The notes under the pieces: model-generated | What the model saw: the letters and a program-made list of their open reading frames with translations, nothing else | Databases searched by the model: none | What the model was told of the DNA's origin: nothing | Position numbers and translations under genes: made by a program | Source of the DNA: a bacterium | Lineage (GTDB): Bacteria > Patescibacteriota > Minisyncoccia > Phycocordibacterales > CALRBL01 | DNA: 64,000 nucleotides | Direction of reading: 5' to 3' | Assembly: GCA_027487075.1 (NCBI GenBank) | Contig: JAIYEG010000002.1 | Coordinates: 1,244 to 65,243, forward strand | Shown here: in pieces, positions 54,065-63,293 of the stretch | How positions within the stretch are numbered: position 1 is the stretch's first letter | Layout of the letters: every line of letters begins with the position of its first letter

Positions 54065-54137
54065 GGGCCCCTAGCTCATCTGGTAGAGCGCCTCATTTGC
54101 ACTGAGGAGGTGAGCGGTTCGAGTCCGCTGGGGTCCA
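54065..54137 (+). tRNA. tRNA-Ala (anticodon UGC)
   Basis: It folds as a cloverleaf. The acceptor stem GGGCCCC/GGGGTCC carries the diagnostic G3:U70 pair. The anticodon stem-loop CCTCA-TTTGCAC-TGAGG gives anticodon TGC. The T-arm is GGTTCGAGTCC. CCA is not encoded. Confidence 0.85.
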
Positions 54138-54876: not shown

Positions 54877-55788
54877 ATGAAATTTATCATGCAGGAAGAT
54901 GTGCGACGCTGGTACCATCTGTTTTGGGATCTCGAGAAAGGTGGGTTATTTCTCAGGATTCATCGCGAGTACATCGCAAGTATGCCCCACAAAGATTTCA
55001 GTGTGTACTTCGAGGGTAAGGAAGAAGAGCTATCTCTTTTGCCTTTGTTTGATCGGTACGAGCCAATAGTGGGAAGTCAGACGTTCGGAATCAATGATTC
55101 GCTGATCTTGGTGGGGAGCGATGCAGACTGGCTTACGTATCAGATTCGCATACCGCACATGGTTTTGCGAACAGGCATGTCCTGTCCCGATTGTGACGGG
55201 ACGGGAAAAAGACTGTGGCTTGGTGAGGTGGGCGAAGATATCTGCGACGCTTGTGGTGGTACGAAGAGCGAACGCTACTACTGCTATCATGAAGTGAAGC
55301 ACGTCTGCTACTCTCTGCAGGTGCTACTTGGAGCGATTGCGTATCCGCACGATCATGATATGCCGACAACATCGCAGCAGGTGCTCTCGATCACATCCTG
55401 TTCTGTTCCGGGTGGACACGGTCACTCGGTTGGTGGATATGCCAGCCCCTCCTTGGTGAAGTTTTGGAGGCGCCTATCTCCTGATGAACGTAGTACTATG
55501 CGTGTGGACGATGCTGAACGAGCGATGTATGAGGCGCATCGACAACTTCATGGAGAAGTAAAGTCGTACTACGATCATGGCTTCAATGCGTTTGTGTCCA
55601 ATGGCCAGCTATTGCTCAGGTGTCCAGAGAATGCGTGTGAAATTCACTCCGACCACCTCGGGGAGTCAGACAGAGGAAGAGGTACGAACATTACGTGCCA
55701 CAACCTTGACTCTGGTGTGCAGCAATTGACGCTTCTTGCTGGTTTGGGAGTGATTGCGAGTTTGTATGATAACCACGTCGAGTCCTGA
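54877..55788 (+). CDS. Hypothetical protein with a DnaJ-type CxxCxGxG zinc-finger pair
   Basis: 'CPDCDGTGK' and 'CDACGGTKS' lie 18 aa apart. The rest of the protein is unassigned. Confidence 0.4.
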   Translation: MKFIMQEDVRRWYHLFWDLEKGGLFLRIHREYIASMPHKDFSVYFEGKEEELSLLPLFDRYEPIVGSQTFGINDSLILVGSDADWLTYQIRIPHMVLRTGMSCPDCDGTGKRLWLGEVGEDICDACGGTKSERYYCYHEVKHVCYSLQVLLGAIAYPHDHDMPTTSQQVLSITSCSVPGGHGHSVGGYASPSLVKFWRRLSPDERSTMRVDDAERAMYEAHRQLHGEVKSYYDHGFNAFVSNGQLLLRCPENACEIHSDHLGESDRGRGTNITCHNLDSGVQQLTLLAGLGVIASLYDNHVES

Positions 55789-56720: not shown

Positions 56721-57227
56721 ATGACAAGCGAAAAAGCACAAAAAGCTGAATTTCTCACCCTTTATGAGAAGCACGCCGATGAACTTTTTCGGTATTGTTA
56801 CTTCAAGACGAGTAATAGGGAGCAATCACTCGAAATTGTCCAGGAAGTATTTATGAAGGCCTGGATTACCATTACCAAAGAAACGGTCATGGAAAACCCT
56901 CGAGCCTTCCTCTATGCGGCCACCCGAAATGCTATCACCGACTGGTATCGCAAGAAAAAGGTGGTATCCCTCGATGATCTTCATGATGTGGGCTTCGATG
57001 CCCCTGTCGAGCACTCGGGTCATCACACAGATCGTGTCGAGGTAGAGCGTATTCTCGAAAAGACCTCAAAACTTGAAGAAAAATATCGCGAAGTTATTAT
57101 TTTGCGCTTCGTGAACGATCTCTCGGTTACCGAGATAGCGGAGCTCCTCAAAGAGACCGAAAACAATATTTCTGTACGTCTCCATCGAGCACTCGAAAAA
57201 CTTCGAAAATTGTATATAAAAAAATGA
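56721..57227 (+). CDS. ECF-type RNA polymerase sigma factor (sigma-70 regions 2 and 4)
   Basis: It has region 2 ('LFRYCYFKT...EIVQEVFMKAW') and region 4 HTH ('LSVTEIAELLKETENNISVRLHRALEKL'). Confidence 0.8.
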   Translation: MTSEKAQKAEFLTLYEKHADELFRYCYFKTSNREQSLEIVQEVFMKAWITITKETVMENPRAFLYAATRNAITDWYRKKKVVSLDDLHDVGFDAPVEHSGHHTDRVEVERILEKTSKLEEKYREVIILRFVNDLSVTEIAELLKETENNISVRLHRALEKLRKLYIKK

Positions 57228-58147
57228 AAACAACCTGGATCAAAAAATTCTCAAAGACTGCTCGCGAAGTGAAACTCACTGCGCGTGATAAGCGTGCCAT
57301 GTTGAATGCAATTCTCGGACCAAAAAACATCCCTTCACCATATGGCTTTTTCCTCACGGTTATGGAGTACCGCACGCGTATTGCGGTGGCGGCATTCACT
57401 TTCATGCTCATTATCACGAGTGGTGGTACGTCGTATGCAGCATCGGCAGCACTTCCTGGAGATGCACTTTATCCTATTAAGACCAACATCAACGAAGGGC
57501 TTCAGACTCTTGTCGCGGTGACACCTGATGCAAAAGTAAAAGTAGAAGTGCAACATACCAAAAATCGTCTCGCTGAAGCAGAGATACTTTCAAAAAAAGG
57601 AAAGCTCACCGAAGAAACTCAGGCTATTATTGAAACTAAAATCACCGAGCATACCGAATCTATCAAGGCGGGCATTGCAGAGCTTACGTCTGAGCAGGCT
57701 ACGACGACCGTAAAAGAAGTAATTGCTGACCTCAAGAGTACGCTTGATGAGCACGCTGCGGTACTTTCTGATCTTGCCTCATCGTCATCATCCGCCACAA
57801 CAACTGTCGAAGCAAGCTCTACGCTGGCTGTGGAGGCACGTATAGCAACTATGGCAGCTCCTGTTGAACAAACTGAACAAGATAAGCATATCGATGCTCT
57901 TATTACTAAGGTAAATGAAGTTAAGAGTACGATTGAAGATATTGAAAAAGCTATTGACGACTCCGCTCAGGCTCAAGCTCAGGCACAAGTAACTGCAACC
58001 AGCACAGCTGAAGTGGATAATGTTATAATCAACACATGGACATCATCATCTTCGGAATCTCAGGTAATCTCGCCGAACGCAAGCTCATCCCAGCCCTCAT
58101 CGACCTCTACGGTAGAGGTAGGCTCCCCAAAAATACAAGGCTTATAG
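57224..58147 (+). CDS. DUF5667-like membrane protein, a putative anti-sigma factor partner, with a Ser/Thr-rich tail
   Basis: It overlaps the sigma stop by 4 bp. It has a single TM helix, a helical extracytoplasmic region and a low-complexity S/T tail. It overlaps the zwf-like start by 112 bp. Confidence 0.5.
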   Translation: MKTTWIKKFSKTAREVKLTARDKRAMLNAILGPKNIPSPYGFFLTVMEYRTRIAVAAFTFMLIITSGGTSYAASAALPGDALYPIKTNINEGLQTLVAVTPDAKVKVEVQHTKNRLAEAEILSKKGKLTEETQAIIETKITEHTESIKAGIAELTSEQATTTVKEVIADLKSTLDEHAAVLSDLASSSSSATTTVEASSTLAVEARIATMAAPVEQTEQDKHIDALITKVNEVKSTIEDIEKAIDDSAQAQAQAQVTATSTAEVDNVIINTWTSSSSESQVISPNASSSQPSSTSTVEVGSPKIQGL

Positions 58148-59070
58148 GCTTCTCTCGTTCACCCAAGCTGTTTGATCAGCTTCCTTTTGAGTATCAACAC
58201 ATCGTAGGTGCTTATGATGATCCTGCATCATTTAAAACACTCGAACAAGCGCTTCGCCTAGATGTAAAACACCTTGCATATCTTGCATTGCCACCTACTG
58301 CATCAAAACAGGTGCTCCGTATGATGCATCACCTCAAGGTGTTTACACTTATTGAAAAACCTTTTGGTGAAGGATTCAAGGACGCTCAAGGTCTCGCAAG
58401 ATTTTTGGAGACATCAGCGATTGATACGTGTCATGTAAAAGTAGATCACTATGCTGGCAAAAAAGAGTTGCGCGCACTACAAAAGGAAGATCCTGCGCAC
58501 ATACAATCACTTACGATTGAAATTCTTGAGACCGCCACGGTAGATCATCGTGCAGGCTTTTATGATGCAGTTGGGGCGCTTCGCGATGTTGGTCAAAACC
58601 ACCTGCTTTTTATGCTTGCACGCATTTTTCATGCCACACACTCACGCTCGTATATTTTGTCTCGACTTGTGCCTGCGCAAGATCACGATGCACATCACTT
58701 TGCACGATACGATGGCAGAGAAGGAAAAGAAACCTATCTTTCAGTGAAGGCCCACATCGATGATCCAGAGCTTCGGCATATCGATATCACACTACGAAGT
58801 GGTAAGGCACTCGCTGAAAATCGGGTGGCAATCATAGTTACCTACACCTCAGGAGAAACTAAAGAAATCGTACTCGAAGGGGGGCATGAGGCATATATGA
58901 ATATCCTCGAAGACGCCATAGAAGGCCGCCTAGAGGGCTTTTTGTCGACTGAGGAGGTGCTCGCAGCATGGAAGTTTATTGAGGAGGTAGAGCGCATCAA
59001 GGAAAAAAAAGAAATCCTATGCTATCCTATAGGCTATGATCAAAGATTTTTTAATGAGAAAGCTGCTTGA
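58036..59070 (+). CDS. zwf: Glucose-6-phosphate dehydrogenase family protein (short form, 344 aa)
   Basis: It has the N-terminal 'IFGISGNLAERKLIPAL', 'EKPFGEGFKDAQGL', 'KVDHYAGKKEL' and 'LRDVGQNHLLFML' Zwf signature motifs. It is about 140 aa shorter than typical Zwf. Confidence 0.55.
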   Translation: MDIIIFGISGNLAERKLIPALIDLYGRGRLPKNTRLIGFSRSPKLFDQLPFEYQHIVGAYDDPASFKTLEQALRLDVKHLAYLALPPTASKQVLRMMHHLKVFTLIEKPFGEGFKDAQGLARFLETSAIDTCHVKVDHYAGKKELRALQKEDPAHIQSLTIEILETATVDHRAGFYDAVGALRDVGQNHLLFMLARIFHATHSRSYILSRLVPAQDHDAHHFARYDGREGKETYLSVKAHIDDPELRHIDITLRSGKALAENRVAIIVTYTSGETKEIVLEGGHEAYMNILEDAIEGRLEGFLSTEEVLAAWKFIEEVERIKEKKEILCYPIGYDQRFFNEKAA

Positions 59071-59263
59071 ACGCCAGCTCAAAAACGTTCCCAAAGAACA
59101 GCAAGAACAGATGATTGCCATGATAACCAAGAATCCAGAGCTGTTCCAGAAGATTGGTATGGAGGTCAAAAAGCGTACTGATAGCGGTATGGATCAGATG
59201 AAGGCAACAATGGAAGTGATGCGTATGTACGAAAGTGAGCTTCGCGCACTTCAACAAAAATAA
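59036..59263 (+). CDS. Small helical hypothetical protein
   Basis: 75-aa ORF overlapping the zwf-like 3' end. Its start is uncertain. Confidence 0.3.
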   Translation: MIKDFLMRKLLERQLKNVPKEQQEQMIAMITKNPELFQKIGMEVKKRTDSGMDQMKATMEVMRMYESELRALQQK

Positions 59264-60755
59264 TATGCTCAACACAATCGACCGATTCCTCAACAACATC
59301 ACCATGTATCGCTTGGTGTTGTATGGTCTAGCACTACTCGCCGCGTACTCAATGGCTCTTGCTCTCTCAGGGAGTTTGTCGTTTGGCGTCTTCTCCTATG
59401 TTGCGACATTGCTTGCAGTGCTTGCGGGGTGTGGTATTTCAAACGTCATTCTTTCGAAATGTTTTGGAGCTCCGGTGAATATTGAGTCATGGCTCATCAC
59501 GGGATTTATTTTGTACTTTATTTTGTTCCCGTCATATCAGGTTGCTGATCTGATCACTGCTTTTGCGGTAGGTTTTTTTGCAATGGCATCAAAGTACTTA
59601 CTTGCTACGAATGCACGGCATATCTTCAACCCTGTAGCCGCAGGACTCTTCATCATGAGCATATTCCCCACACTTCAGAATGGAAATGGGGTATGGTGGG
59701 TAGGCACTTCTGTGATGCTTCCTCTCGTGCTTATGGTCGGTCTTTTGATTGTGCGTAAGATTCGTAAATTCGCGATGTTCGGGGCATTTGTAGCAAGTGC
59801 GCTGGTGGTAACAGCCGTATTTCACTGGTCAGAAGTGGGTGTAGCACTTCGAGAGCAGTTTCTTTCATGGCCACTCATCTTTTTCGGTACCATTATGCTT
59901 ACCGAGCCTCTTACGATGCCGTCTCGTCGAACGTTTCAAGTCGTGTTTGGAGTAATCGTGGGAGCGCTATTTGCAAGCTCGTATTCATTTGGTCCGATTC
60001 ATTCTTCTCCAGAGCTTGCACTGCTTATTGGTAATATTTTTGCATACACAGTGAGCATGAAGCGACGCTTAATGCTCAAGCTTAAAGAAAAGAAGTTAAT
60101 ATCAAAGGAAACGTATGAATTTACGTTTACTTCTGATGCGCCGTTTACCTTTACGCCAGGTCAGTACATTGAGTGGACATTGTCTGAAGCTCGAGCAAAG
60201 ACCGCGCCTGATAATCGTGGAAATCGCCGCTACTTCACCATTGCATCATCACCCACTGAAAAAGAGCTAAAGCTCGGGGTAAAATTCTATACCCCCTCAA
60301 GTACCTTCAAGCAACATTTACTTAACATGAAAGAAGGAGAAATGATTGCTGCGGGTCAGCTCGGTGGAGATTTTGTGATGCCGAAAGATACTTCAAAGAA
60401 GCTGGTGTTTATTGCGGGAGGAATTGGTGTCACGCCGTTTCGTAGTATGGTGAAGTATCTTTCAGATAGTGGAGAACAACGCAAAGTCACTCTTATCTAT
60501 AGCGTGAAAGAGGAAGCTGAAATTGCGTATAAAGATATTTTTGAAGAAGGAGCGCAGAAGTTTGGATTAAGAACCGAATGCCTTATTAAAGATTTTCTCA
60601 CCAAGGAAGTGGTAGAAAAGATGGTCCCAGACTGGAAGGATTGTATGTTCTATCTCTCAGGGCCCAACGCAATGGTAGAGAATTATAAAACTATGCTTTT
60701 GCGCATGGGGCTTCCACGCGCCTCTATCAAAACTGATTATTTCCCAGGCTTTTAG
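59235..60755 (+). CDS. Membrane oxidoreductase with an NqrB/RnfD-like polytopic N-terminal domain fused to an FNR-like FAD/NAD(P)-binding reductase domain
   Basis: It has about 8 TM helices with 'FNPVAAG' and a 'TEPLTMPS' flavinylation-type motif. The C-terminal domain carries 'RRYFTIASSP' (RxYS FAD-binding) and 'LVFIAGGIGVTPFRSM' (NAD(P)-binding). Confidence 0.6.
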   Translation: MSFAHFNKNNMLNTIDRFLNNITMYRLVLYGLALLAAYSMALALSGSLSFGVFSYVATLLAVLAGCGISNVILSKCFGAPVNIESWLITGFILYFILFPSYQVADLITAFAVGFFAMASKYLLATNARHIFNPVAAGLFIMSIFPTLQNGNGVWWVGTSVMLPLVLMVGLLIVRKIRKFAMFGAFVASALVVTAVFHWSEVGVALREQFLSWPLIFFGTIMLTEPLTMPSRRTFQVVFGVIVGALFASSYSFGPIHSSPELALLIGNIFAYTVSMKRRLMLKLKEKKLISKETYEFTFTSDAPFTFTPGQYIEWTLSEARAKTAPDNRGNRRYFTIASSPTEKELKLGVKFYTPSSTFKQHLLNMKEGEMIAAGQLGGDFVMPKDTSKKLVFIAGGIGVTPFRSMVKYLSDSGEQRKVTLIYSVKEEAEIAYKDIFEEGAQKFGLRTECLIKDFLTKEVVEKMVPDWKDCMFYLSGPNAMVENYKTMLLRMGLPRASIKTDYFPGF

Positions 60756-60769
60756 CTGATGGCACTGCT

Positions 60770-61639
60770 ATGTACACCTTTGCTTACGAATCGATGGGAA
60801 CTCACTGGGAAGTGACGTTTGATCCACATGAGGTGAAGAGTGGGGTGAGCGCAGAAGACATGAAGCATGAGATTATTGCTCGTTCTCAACGTTTTGATGA
60901 GACCTACTCACGTTTTATTCGTTCGTCGTTAGTGTGGAGGATTGCAGAGCAGGCAGGAGTGTACAAAATTCCTGATGATTTTCGAGCGATGCTAGAGCTC
61001 TACCTCAAGTTCTATGAACCATCAGGGTATAAGCTTAATCCGCTCATTGGGTTTACGATCAGTGACCTTGGATATGATGATGTCTATTCTTTGACCGAGC
61101 AAGAAGTGGTGCGTTTTACTCCAGATCTCATTGAAACGATAACCCTTGAGGGAAATACCCTTATTACTTCCGCCCCGGTACTTTTTGATGTGGGAGCACT
61201 TGGTAAAGGATATTTCGTTGATCGTATAGTTGCTTACCTCAAAGAACAGGGTTGTGAGTCAATGCTCGTGAATGGTAGCGGTGATGTGTACTACCAAGGC
61301 ACCGAACCTACTACCATAGGTCTCGAAGATCCGCGTAATGCATCAAAGGTGATCGGTACCACGACCCTTCAAAAAGGTGCATTGTGTGCATCGGGTATTA
61401 ACAAGCGTACATGGCGTGATCATCATCATGTGATTGATCCTCATACACGTGCTTCGGTTGATAATGAAGTGTTGGCAACCTGGGTAGTTGCAGGTGACAC
61501 AGCCACTGCAGATGCGCTCGCAAGCTGTCTTTTTTTTGTGTCACCCGAAGCACTTCACGAGTGGAAATTCGAGTACGTCATCATGAACAAACAGGGCTAC
61601 ATAAAAAAATCCCCCGGATGGGTGGGAGATTTTTTCTAG
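60770..61639 (+). CDS. apbE: FAD:protein FMN transferase (ApbE family)
   Basis: It has 'ESMGTHWEV' (the MGT motif) and the conserved C-terminal 'DPHTRAS' region. Confidence 0.8.
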   Translation: MYTFAYESMGTHWEVTFDPHEVKSGVSAEDMKHEIIARSQRFDETYSRFIRSSLVWRIAEQAGVYKIPDDFRAMLELYLKFYEPSGYKLNPLIGFTISDLGYDDVYSLTEQEVVRFTPDLIETITLEGNTLITSAPVLFDVGALGKGYFVDRIVAYLKEQGCESMLVNGSGDVYYQGTEPTTIGLEDPRNASKVIGTTTLQKGALCASGINKRTWRDHHHVIDPHTRASVDNEVLATWVVAGDTATADALASCLFFVSPEALHEWKFEYVIMNKQGYIKKSPGWVGDFF

Positions 61640-61658
61640 TTTGTTTGACGCGTCGAGA

Positions 61659-62162
61659 TTATGCCTTCGCTTCAGCTTTGATAGTCACAAGGGCATCCAT
61701 GAAGCTCTTGGTAGTGAGAGATGCTCCACTTACGATGCTTAGGTTGATACTGTCAACGGATTTTCCTACGACTTGTGTGCGGTATTCTTCTGCAAACCCC
61801 TGCTGGTAGCGCTTACTTGCTTCGGGTTTTGCCTGAATATCGAATGAGGTACTTACGACTTTATCATCTTTGATAGTAATAGTGAGTCCAAACGTATCCG
61901 TGCCTGCTGGTGAGCGATATGATCCAATGGTGTTGTACGTGCCATCTTTGTAGGTGCGCTGAGGTGGAGGAGTTGTGGTGGTTGTTGTGGTTGTTGTTGA
62001 CACCGCGCTAGAGGTAGTTGCATTCTCTGAAGTGGTGTCAATATTGGTATTAGTAGGGGTAGCTACTTCATTGTTTGAAGGGGTATTGAGTCGTGCGAGG
62101 GCAACGCCAGCGACAACGATCACTACAATACCGCCGATTACTTTTTTTGTTGTTGGTTGCAT
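61659..62162 (-). CDS. Membrane-anchored FMN-binding-domain protein, a likely ApbE flavinylation substrate, with a poly-Thr/Pro linker
   Basis: It has an N-terminal TM helix, a 'TTTTTTTTTPPP' linker and an FMN_bind domain whose flavinylation-type motif is 'SGASLTT'. Confidence 0.6.
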   Translation of the reverse strand: MQPTTKKVIGGIVVIVVAGVALARLNTPSNNEVATPTNTNIDTTSENATTSSAVSTTTTTTTTTPPPQRTYKDGTYNTIGSYRSPAGTDTFGLTITIKDDKVVSTSFDIQAKPEASKRYQQGFAEEYRTQVVGKSVDSINLSIVSGASLTTKSFMDALVTIKAEAKA

Positions 62163-62192
62163 AAGTGAAAGTGTATCAAGAAAGCGTTATAC

Positions 62193-63293
62193 TTGTCTAA
62201 CATGAGAGACTTTATTGCCTATATCTACAAATACCTAGCAAAACCGGTGCTTTTTAAGTTTGATCCTGAAGACGTACACGATCGTATGGTGATGGTGGGC
62301 AAACTCTTGGGCAAGCTCACACCCGCTCGCTATATTACCAAAAAAATTTTTACCTATGAGGATTCTATTCTTGCTCAAGATGTGTGCGGGCTTCATTTCT
62401 CGAACCCCATTGGACTCTCGGCAGGATTCGATAAGAATGCTGAGCTTACGCAGATCATGTCCGCTATCGGATTCGCCTTCGAGGAGGTGGGTTCAGTAAC
62501 AGGAAAGCTCTGTGCAGGTAATCCCAAACCTCGTTTGTGGCGAGTGCCAGAGCAAAAGGGAATCCGCGTGTACTACGGACTCAAAAATGATGGGTGTGAG
62601 GTGATTGCAGATCGTTTGGCACACACACGTCGCATTGAAAAAGATTTCCAGCTCGGCATCAGTGTTGCAATGACTAACTGCGAAGCAAATCTCGATATCG
62701 ACAATGCGGTGCGAGACTATCAGAAGGCATTTCGCACTATGGAACCTCATGCTGACTATCTCACTATCAATATCAGCTGTCCGAATACGCTCGGTGGCCA
62801 GCCGTTTACTGATCCATTAAAGCTTGAGAAACTGCTTTCTGCTCTTGAAGAGGATGGCGCCCTTCGAAGGGCGCCATCCAAGCCGATCTTCATAAAAATG
62901 TCACCCGATATGTCGATGGAGCAGGTAGATGCAGTGCTTGCGGTACTGCAGGTGCATCGCGTGCATGGTATTATATGTACTAACCTCACTAAGAAGAAGG
63001 AGGTGAAAGGTGGATATAGTGGAAAGATGGTGCAGGAGCAGTCAGATAAGCTTCTTGCCCATATCTACCGAAGTTGTGGTTCGCGTTTTGTGTTGGTGGG
63101 ATGTGGAGGGGTGTTTAGTGCCGAAGATGCCTATCGAAAGATTCGTCTTGGTGCAACGCTCATTCAGATGATCACCGGCATGATATACGAGGGACCTCAG
63201 GTGGTAGGTACTATCAATCGCGATCTCGCCACACTTCTTCGACGAGACGGTTTTACCCACATTAGCCAAGCCATAGGCATCGATAATCGATAA
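62193..63293 (+). CDS. pyrD: Dihydroorotate dehydrogenase (quinone), class 2
   Basis: It has an N-terminal membrane-association helix, then 'NPIGLSAGFDKN' and 'CGGVFSAEDAYRKIRLGATLIQMITGMIYEGP'. Confidence 0.9.
   Translation: MSNMRDFIAYIYKYLAKPVLFKFDPEDVHDRMVMVGKLLGKLTPARYITKKIFTYEDSILAQDVCGLHFSNPIGLSAGFDKNAELTQIMSAIGFAFEEVGSVTGKLCAGNPKPRLWRVPEQKGIRVYYGLKNDGCEVIADRLAHTRRIEKDFQLGISVAMTNCEANLDIDNAVRDYQKAFRTMEPHADYLTINISCPNTLGGQPFTDPLKLEKLLSALEEDGALRRAPSKPIFIKMSPDMSMEQVDAVLAVLQVHRVHGIICTNLTKKKEVKGGYSGKMVQEQSDKLLAHIYRSCGSRFVLVGCGGVFSAEDAYRKIRLGATLIQMITGMIYEGPQVVGTINRDLATLLRRDGFTHISQAIGIDNR

Follow-up and report, generated by a model that had tools for sequence, protein, structure and literature searches.

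The window analyzed here is a stretch of 64,000 nucleotides from a patescibacterial contig (JAIYEG010000002.1), and this work concerns three adjacent genes between positions 59265 and 62162 of it. They encode a membrane protein in which an NqrB/RnfD-like domain is fused to a ferredoxin-NADP-reductase-type (FNR) domain, an ApbE-type transferase that uses flavin adenine dinucleotide (FAD) as donor of flavin mononucleotide (FMN), and a small anchored FMN-binding protein. This three-gene module is very probably a divergent member of the NQR/RNF-like flavinylation-associated electron-transfer system. That system was defined from genome analysis by Méheust et al. in 2021 (eLife, PMC8238504) as a fusion of PF03116 and PF00175 inside a cluster of ApbE and FMN_bind genes, with Actinobacteria and the candidate phyla radiation described as its main hosts. 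A sequence-only reading of the same DNA had proposed the architecture given above, and Pfam, profile and fold comparisons bear it out. The suggestion that the module is an unrecognized redox system could not be kept, since a description of the NQR/RNF-like system dates from 2021 (PMC8238504); the locus belongs under a system already in the literature. The proposed conduit from NAD(P)H to an extracytosolic flavin agrees with the published hypothesis and is not novel (PMC8238504, PMC10979944).

The four open reading frames that had been listed for this region, those of the module and of the adjacent pyrD, are all present. The features are given below, with the residues of the fusion counted from position 59235.

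59265 to 60755, plus strand: fusion gene, 496 residues from the probable start at ATG 59265; the mechanical open reading frame, 59235 to 60755 from GTG 59235, has 506 residues
59265 to 60059, plus strand: NqrB/RnfD-like membrane domain of the fusion, approximately residues 11-275
59901 to 59924, plus strand: TEPLTMPS motif of the fusion, residues 223-230, located by translation
60069 to 60752, plus strand: FNR-type FAD/NAD(P)H domain of the fusion, approximately residues 279-506
60770 to 61639, plus strand: apbE, FAD:protein FMN transferase, 289 residues, PF02424
61659 to 62162, minus strand: NqrC/RnfG-like FMN-binding subunit, 167 residues, from family alignment and profile comparison
61710 to 61730, minus strand: SGASLTT motif of the 167-residue protein, with the Ser148 codon at 61719-61721, located by translation
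62193 to 63293, plus strand: pyrD, class 2 (quinone-type) dihydroorotate dehydrogenase, 366 residues, TIGR01036

The fusion probably starts at ATG 59265 and has 496 residues, because the identical database protein (P0001) has this length, the family alignment begins at this codon, and the ATG sits 1 nt after the stop of a small upstream reading frame. The apbE gene begins 14 nt past the fusion stop codon. It is directly followed by the convergent FMN_bind-like gene, whose 3' end is separated from apbE by 19 nt. No terminator-like hairpin was detected in a scan of this junction, and a promoter and terminator scan of the locus stayed at chance level. On its other side the FMN_bind gene, on the minus strand, is separated by a gap of only about 30-40 nt (62162-62202) from the divergently oriented pyrD, on the plus strand.

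Structure of the fusion protein

In the Pfam search the fusion scores 43.1 bits with NAD_binding_1 (PF00175; cut-off 22) and 22.5 bits with FAD_binding_6 (PF00970; cut-off 21.1). The profile of the membrane domain, NQR2_RnfD_RnfE (PF03116), reaches 27.3 bits, slightly less than its gathering score of 27.7, and the match is confined to profile positions 170-286, the C-terminal third. Among the profiles that the sequence-only reading had named for the module, PF00175, PF00970 and PF02424 pass, while PF03116 stays just below its threshold and PF04205 gives no match.

The comparison of a full-length profile with PDB sequences is dominated by the FNR domain, and a separate N-terminal profile was required. 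The only match of this N-terminal profile among all PDB sequences is RnfD of Azotobacter vinelandii (8ahx_D), with E=2.9e-5. A similar effect was seen with the structural model. The full-length model returned FNR-class and NOX matches only, with the membrane domain hidden, and residues 1-278 were modelled alone instead. This AlphaFold2 (AF2) model has a pLDDT of 89.8 and a pTM of 0.87. Its 15 best Foldseek matches in the PDB are RnfD/NqrB chains (TM-scores 0.57-0.71, E=2e-6 to 4e-4), and the first match of a different kind is a urea transporter at E=0.33. The best PDB matches of the C-terminal half by sequence are NqrF FAD domains (E=1e-18), and by fold this half belongs to the class of FNR, flavohaemoglobin, NqrF and NOX dehydrogenases. 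The fusion of an NqrB/RnfD-fold domain to an FNR domain is genuine.

The family alignment contains invariant motifs in both halves: HxFNP, WW and MxTEPxTxP in the membrane half, and RxFTxAS (FAD binding), GGxGxTP (nicotinamide nucleotide binding), SGP and the C-terminal DYFPGF in the FNR half. In the model, five helix crossings follow the position of a deleted loop described below. Together with the positively charged segments RKIRKF and KRRLMLKLKEKK, they would place the FNR domain in the cytoplasm.

All of the 120 best database matches of the fusion are full length and 45-63% identical to it; those with a named source are from Patescibacteria. Among representatives of clusters at 50% identity, relatives of the N-terminal domain number 1230 at E<=1e-3, 693 at E<=1e-10 and 307 at E<=1e-30, and most of them have a length of about 500 residues. 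Over residues 10-506 the fusion is 39-41% identical to the Ktedonobacteria members from Dictyobacter (L017) and Ktedonospora (L021). The Dictyobacter cluster clears the Pfam gathering thresholds for PF04205, PF02424, PF03116 and PF00175.

Loss of the flavinylated threonine loop

The sequence TEPLTMPS in the membrane domain had been read as a flavinylation-type motif, and this assignment did not survive alignment. TEPLTMPS aligns with ATDPVTSP of A. vinelandii RnfD in the HMM (hidden Markov model) alignment, and with LTDPVTAST of Escherichia coli RsxD, residues 288-295, in both hhalign and MAFFT. The flavinylated threonine of RsxD is T187 in the sequence GISQAT, approximately 100 residues upstream of the TDPVT motif. 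Flavinylation of Thr187 is established for Vibrio cholerae RnfD (Backiel 2008, as cited in PMC8238504). By these alignments TEPLTMPS is the counterpart of the RnfD/NqrB TDPVT motif and not a flavinylation site.

The fusion family and RsxD are colinear from the N- to the C-terminus, except for a segment of about 75 residues that contains T187 in RsxD and has no counterpart in the family. The deletion of this loop leaves the NqrB-like domain without a flavinylation site of its own. The loss of the flavinylated threonine in the NqrB-like subunit was reported by Huang et al. in 2024 (PMC10979944), and the window protein agrees with that description. The sequence-only reading had named two findings that would speak against it: the absence of the conserved flavinylated threonine in this domain, and a lack of co-conservation of the fusion with apbE. 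The threonine is indeed missing; the co-conservation, discussed below, is present.

The FMN-binding subunit

The protein of 167 residues consists of a signal anchor at about residues 8-24, a linker rich in Thr, Ser, Pro and Ala, and a divergent FMN_bind domain at about residues 69-167. The search with Pfam FMN_bind (PF04205) gave no match for this protein, and precomputed Pfam domains are missing from all 120 of its listed relatives; weak PF04205 matches appear in 14 of 32 relatives. The family profile matches the solved FMN-binding domain 8p2a_A with E=0.005, and here vSGaSlT falls on VSGATYT. When the family profile was compared by hhalign with the subunits of canonical clusters, which themselves clear the PF04205 threshold, the alignment covered the whole domain with a probability of 97.8% and E=9e-13. 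On the basis of these profile comparisons, homology of the 167-residue protein to FMN_bind proteins of the NqrC/RnfG type can be considered secure.

The motif SGASLTT of this protein sits on the flavinylation position, as had been proposed. G146 and S148 are invariant in 32 relatives, and S148 aligns with the Thr of SGAT in the canonical subunits and in 8p2a_A. Ser148 is the likely, predicted acceptor of the FMN-phosphoryl group. The charge of the segments flanking the anchor supports a predicted orientation with the N-terminus inside and the C-terminus outside, because the N-terminal flank is more positive than the C-terminal one (positive charge of 2.75 versus 1.25 across 60 relatives). Some relatives carry a clear lipobox in place of the anchor.

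Conservation of the module and the position of pyrD

When one genome per species was scanned, a full-length fusion was recovered at 35 loci. These belong to numerous lineages of Patescibacteria, to Ktedonobacteria and Anaerolineae, to Mesorhizobium and its relatives, and to other groups. With iterated HMMs, genes for both ApbE and the FMN_bind protein are found directly upstream of the fusion in 27 of the 35 loci, and the FMN_bind gene in 30 of them. Searches with single sequences by phmmer under-detect these partners (ApbE in about 22 and FMN_bind in about 9 loci, compared with 27 and 30). The co-occurrence of the fusion with apbE across genomes, which had been suggested as a check, is thus present. 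The usual order of the operon is FMN_bind, ApbE, fusion, and the genes are mostly overlapping and co-directional. Apart from these partners, only a two-component system recurs in the neighborhood, in 10 of the 35 loci (for example, L016 9520-11211 and L019 10571-11359). Its genes, for a histidine kinase and a response regulator of the OmpR type, are located close downstream of the module and are candidates for its regulation.

Separate arrangements were also observed. On an actinobacterial-type contig (L088, 4001-6929) the NqrB-like protein (276 residues) and the FNR protein (233 residues) are encoded by two overlapping genes, which follow genes for a lipoprotein FMN_bind protein and a leaderless ApbE. 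In L087 (4001-5452) and L089 (4001-5411) a pair of lipoprotein FMN_bind and leaderless ApbE genes has no fusion within 4 kb.

The identification of pyrD as a quinone-type enzyme was correct. Its product reaches 272.4 bits with TIGR01036 (cut-off 200) and 338.7 bits with NF003652 (cut-off 267), with matches beginning at residue 11-15, and by these profiles it is a class 2 dihydroorotate dehydrogenase with an N-terminal extension. Its inclusion in the module is not supported. A pyrD gene lies within 8 kb of the fusion in only one of the 35 loci, where it is 5.7 kb away and on the other strand. The three closest relatives (60-62% identity) retain the upstream synteny and the order of fusion, ApbE and convergent FMN_bind gene, and have other genes at the position of pyrD. 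Since the adjacency is not conserved, pyrD is an incidental neighbor and not part of the module.

ApbE without a leader

The window ApbE matches PF02424 with 143.8 bits over profile positions 1-254 of 266, and the domain starts at residue 9. No signal peptide or lipobox was found on this protein. In 31 of 31 cases, the ApbE encoded beside the fusion opens directly with the first strand of its domain. The 120 closest relatives of the window ApbE range from 252 to 319 residues, and in the 102 of them where the conserved strand motif (A/S)xG(T/S) could be located, it begins 7-18 residues into the protein and is preceded by no hydrophobic segment. Three relatives pair a leaderless ApbE with an FMN_bind protein that carries an unmistakable lipobox and no twin-arginine motif. 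The window ApbE compares with the ApbEs of canonical clusters at E~1e-5 and with those inside its own subclade at about 1e-55.

It is important to compare these proteins with the ApbEs known from the literature. Among characterized ApbEs, those with exported substrates are secreted lipoproteins; the cytoplasmic ones that are known act on cytoplasmic enzymes. The only evident ApbE substrate in the NQR/RNF-like class is the signal-anchored or lipoprotein FMN-binding subunit. No discussion of a leaderless ApbE in an NQR/RNF-like system was found in the literature searches. Several resolutions are possible: flavinylation in the cytoplasm before export by the Sec route, an unrecognized export route for ApbE, a second ApbE in the genome, or a different role of this ApbE. 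It may tentatively be suggested for the whole class, where a cytoplasmic ApbE meets an exported substrate with no twin-arginine motif, that FMN is attached in the cytoplasm before export or that ApbE reaches the outside by an unrecognized route. Attachment in the cytoplasm is proposed because FAD is available there. If true, either route would represent a new logic for extracytosolic flavinylation, and the combination of a system-specific leaderless ApbE with an exported substrate raises the question of where and when flavinylation happens.

The Flavodoxin_2/FMN_red genes of relatives were considered as a source of a cytoplasmic ApbE substrate, but they lack an (S/T)G(A/S)(S/T) motif. These genes, which encode 199 residues, lie between the small upstream reading frame and the fusion in L084 (5392-5991), L085 (5395-5994) and L086 (3587-4186); the window has no such gene. 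Their products have no signal peptide and are not obvious ApbE substrates.

Assignment to the NQR/RNF-like system

The features that define the published system can be followed one by one in the window. The NqrB/RnfD-like domain is recognized by the RnfD profile match, by the colinearity with RsxD and by Foldseek, although the strict Pfam threshold is narrowly missed. The C-terminal NqrF-like NAD-binding domain (PF00175) is located on the same polypeptide. The cluster is associated with flavinylation through an ApbE gene and an FMN_bind-like gene with an N-terminal signal anchor. The second subunit, which carries the flavinylation motif, is homologous to NqrC/RnfG by hhalign, though PF04205 is not reached. 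The NqrB loop bearing the threonine is lost, as described by Huang et al. (PMC10979944).

Several points weigh against this assignment. With PF03116 just under its gathering score and PF04205 failing on the window subunit, membership follows from profile and fold comparisons and not from curated thresholds. It is difficult to see how a leaderless ApbE would flavinylate an exported domain. The gene order differs from the common operon, the FMN_bind gene being convergent and downstream. No acceptor gene is linked to the module, and no biochemical evidence for any NQR/RNF-like member was found in the literature searched.

The subclade of the window protein was also seen in the Saccharibacteria-like and Uhrbacteria-like loci L001, L004, L005, L018 and L038. 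The published census used Pfam matches and required an ApbE and/or FMN-binding gene within five genes, with at least one of them carrying a signal peptide or lipidation site (PMC8238504). The window cluster would be dropped by this pipeline, because ApbE is its only gene for a flavinylation partner recognized by Pfam and has no signal peptide. Among the 120 best relatives of the fusion, 54 have a precomputed PF03116 match and 66, including the window protein, do not. Extracytosolic flavinylation has been reported as scarce in the candidate phyla radiation, and this may in part be a detection artefact, since the subclade stays below the thresholds of PF03116 and PF04205 and its ApbE does not pass filters for signal peptides. 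The abundance of the system in Patescibacteria is probably underestimated, as a census based on Pfam thresholds misses this subclade and roughly half of the close relatives of the fusion.

Proposed mechanism and alternatives

A mechanism can be proposed after Méheust et al. (2021) and Huang et al. (2024). NAD(P)H would reduce FAD in the cytoplasmic FNR domain, and the electrons would cross the membrane through one or more flavin sites in the NqrB-like domain. ApbE would attach FMN covalently to the small NqrC/RnfG-like protein, with Ser148 as the putative acceptor. This subunit would be kept outside the membrane by its N-terminal anchor and flexible Thr/Ser/Pro linker. Its covalent FMN could dock in the pocket vacated by the missing NqrB loop, receive the electrons there and pass them to an extracytosolic acceptor. 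In the model of the Ktedonobacter racemifer complex by Huang et al. (PMC10979944), the NqrC-like subunit is proposed to sample, with its FMN, the flavin pocket of its NqrB-like partner; the formation of the complex and electron transfer to an extracytosolic acceptor are, in that work, features of a model only.

The module could instead be a minimal NAD(P)H:quinone oxidoreductase, or work in reverse, so that the quinone/riboflavin side of the NqrB fold feeds or drains the quinone pool of the class 2 PyrD with no export of electrons. The NqrB of Na+-NQR carries riboflavin and forms the route to ubiquinone, as is established (summarized in PMC10979944). The gene for a class 2 dihydroorotate dehydrogenase adjoins the module, and in the three closest relatives the fusion is immediately preceded by a quinone-reductase-like Flavodoxin_2/FMN_red gene. 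However, neither gene is conserved across the fusion family, and the partner that is invariably linked to the fusion is an exported flavoprotein, for which a quinone reductase working at the cytoplasmic side would have no need. The named relatives are mostly Patescibacteria, which generally lack quinone synthesis. A function of this kind is improbable.

A minimal redox-driven Na+ or H+ pump, in which the NqrB/RnfD-like domain couples ion translocation to the oxidation of NAD(P)H, is likewise an unlikely description of the module. The full transmembrane core of NqrB/RnfD is kept (TM-scores up to 0.71), and invariant acidic and polar residues are present (D16, E84, E224 and the HxFNP motif). However, the membrane subunits of the pumps, NqrD/E and RnfA/E, were not found in the window or in the neighborhoods of relatives, and the energy available for pumping depends on the acceptor. 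A phmmer search of the 64-kb window with E. coli RsxA, B, C, D, G and E gave no match, at a low sensitivity, as RsxD missed the fusion too. The annotated neighborhoods of relatives contain no PF02508 or other Rnf/Nqr subunits, and no such family is recurrent in the 35 loci.

Finally, flavinylation of the NqrB/RnfD-like domain itself at TEPLTMPS, in a module working with the adjacent quinone-dependent PyrD, can hardly be correct: the motif exists with T223, E224, P225, T227 and P229 invariant in the family, pyrD is 30-40 nt from the FMN_bind gene, and a cytoplasmic ApbE could in principle reach a site that adjoins the positive and, in the model, probably cytoplasm-facing SRR (residues 230-232), but the equivalent TDPVT is equally conserved in proteins flavinylated elsewhere and lies about 100 residues past T187, TEPLTMPS has no resemblance to the ApbE target motif (S/T)GA(T/S), the flavinylation site of the NqrB-like subunit is lost (PMC10979944), and pyrD is not co-conserved with the module.

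Neighboring genes

Upstream of the fusion, a reading frame of 75 residues (59036-59263, plus strand) shares 35 nt with the end of a glucose-6-phosphate dehydrogenase-like gene, and its stop is 1 nt away from the fusion ATG. It shows 81-83% identity in relatives whose fusion is only 60-62% identical, and is more conserved than its neighbors. It belongs to no Pfam or NCBIfam family; outside the window it occurs in the close relatives L082-L086 only and is absent from the 35 wider loci. The dehydrogenase-like gene (58036-59070, plus strand, 344 residues) is short and divergent: TIGR00871 gives 137 bits against a cut-off of 400, and G6PD_N and G6PD_C match as fragments only. The three closest relatives have it at the same place, with a product of 306-348 residues. 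A role as a source of NADPH for the module would be only a guess and was not adopted, as the synteny is limited to close relatives and is absent from the 35 wider loci.

Further upstream, window positions 56721-58147 encode an extracytoplasmic function (ECF) sigma factor and a DUF5667 protein, which also occur in close relatives and are possible regulators. A Cys/His-rich reading frame of 303 residues (54877-55788, plus strand; CPDCDGTGK...CDACGGTK) has no Pfam match at E<=0.01 and is adjoined by a tRNA gene at 54065-54137.

Comparison with known systems

The module shares with Na+-NQR and RNF the NqrB/RnfD fold, an FNR domain that is closest to NqrF by sequence, a small subunit homologous to the FMN_bind proteins NqrC/RnfG, and an expected dependence on ApbE. 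However, the full set of NqrA-F or RnfA-E,G subunits is not present: the module has no NqrA/D/E or RnfA/B/C/E subunits, and its FNR part lacks a [2Fe-2S] domain. The loop that bears the covalent FMN (on Thr236 in NqrB, Thr187 in RnfD) is deleted. The flow of electrons in the module is presumably one-way and not semicircular.

The flavin-based extracellular electron transfer of the Listeria type (FmnB/PplA/Ndh2/EetAB) likewise has an ApbE-type transferase and, on a flexible stalk, an anchored extracytosolic protein that binds FMN. However, no Ndh2, EetA/B or Dmk gene is located at the module, and the PplA model gives only 24 bits against a cut-off of 325. In addition, FmnB is a secreted lipoprotein, while the window ApbE is leaderless.

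The reductases of the NOX/FRE type (SpNOX, PDB code 8qq7) also have a membrane domain fused to a C-terminal FNR-type dehydrogenase, through which electrons of NAD(P)H are carried across the membrane, and they are the top whole-chain Foldseek matches. The likeness is limited to the FNR domain, and the whole-chain root-mean-square deviation is about 18 Å. The membrane domain of NOX is a six-helix di-haem ferric-reductase fold and not the NqrB/RnfD fold.

With the NQR/RNF-like system the module shares the NqrB/RnfD-like and NqrF-like fusion, the adjacent ApbE, the anchored NqrC/RnfG-like subunit, the lost threonine and the occurrence in the candidate phyla radiation. The window subclade differs from the canonical members in its predicted acceptor, which is Ser in the motif x-G-A/S-S-L-T and not the Thr of SGAT. 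Its FMN_bind domain lies below Pfam detection and PF03116 remains below threshold, and its ApbE is a distinct subtype of about 290 residues. In the lineage of the window the FMN_bind gene is inverted and downstream, while in the canonical clusters it is the first gene of the operon.

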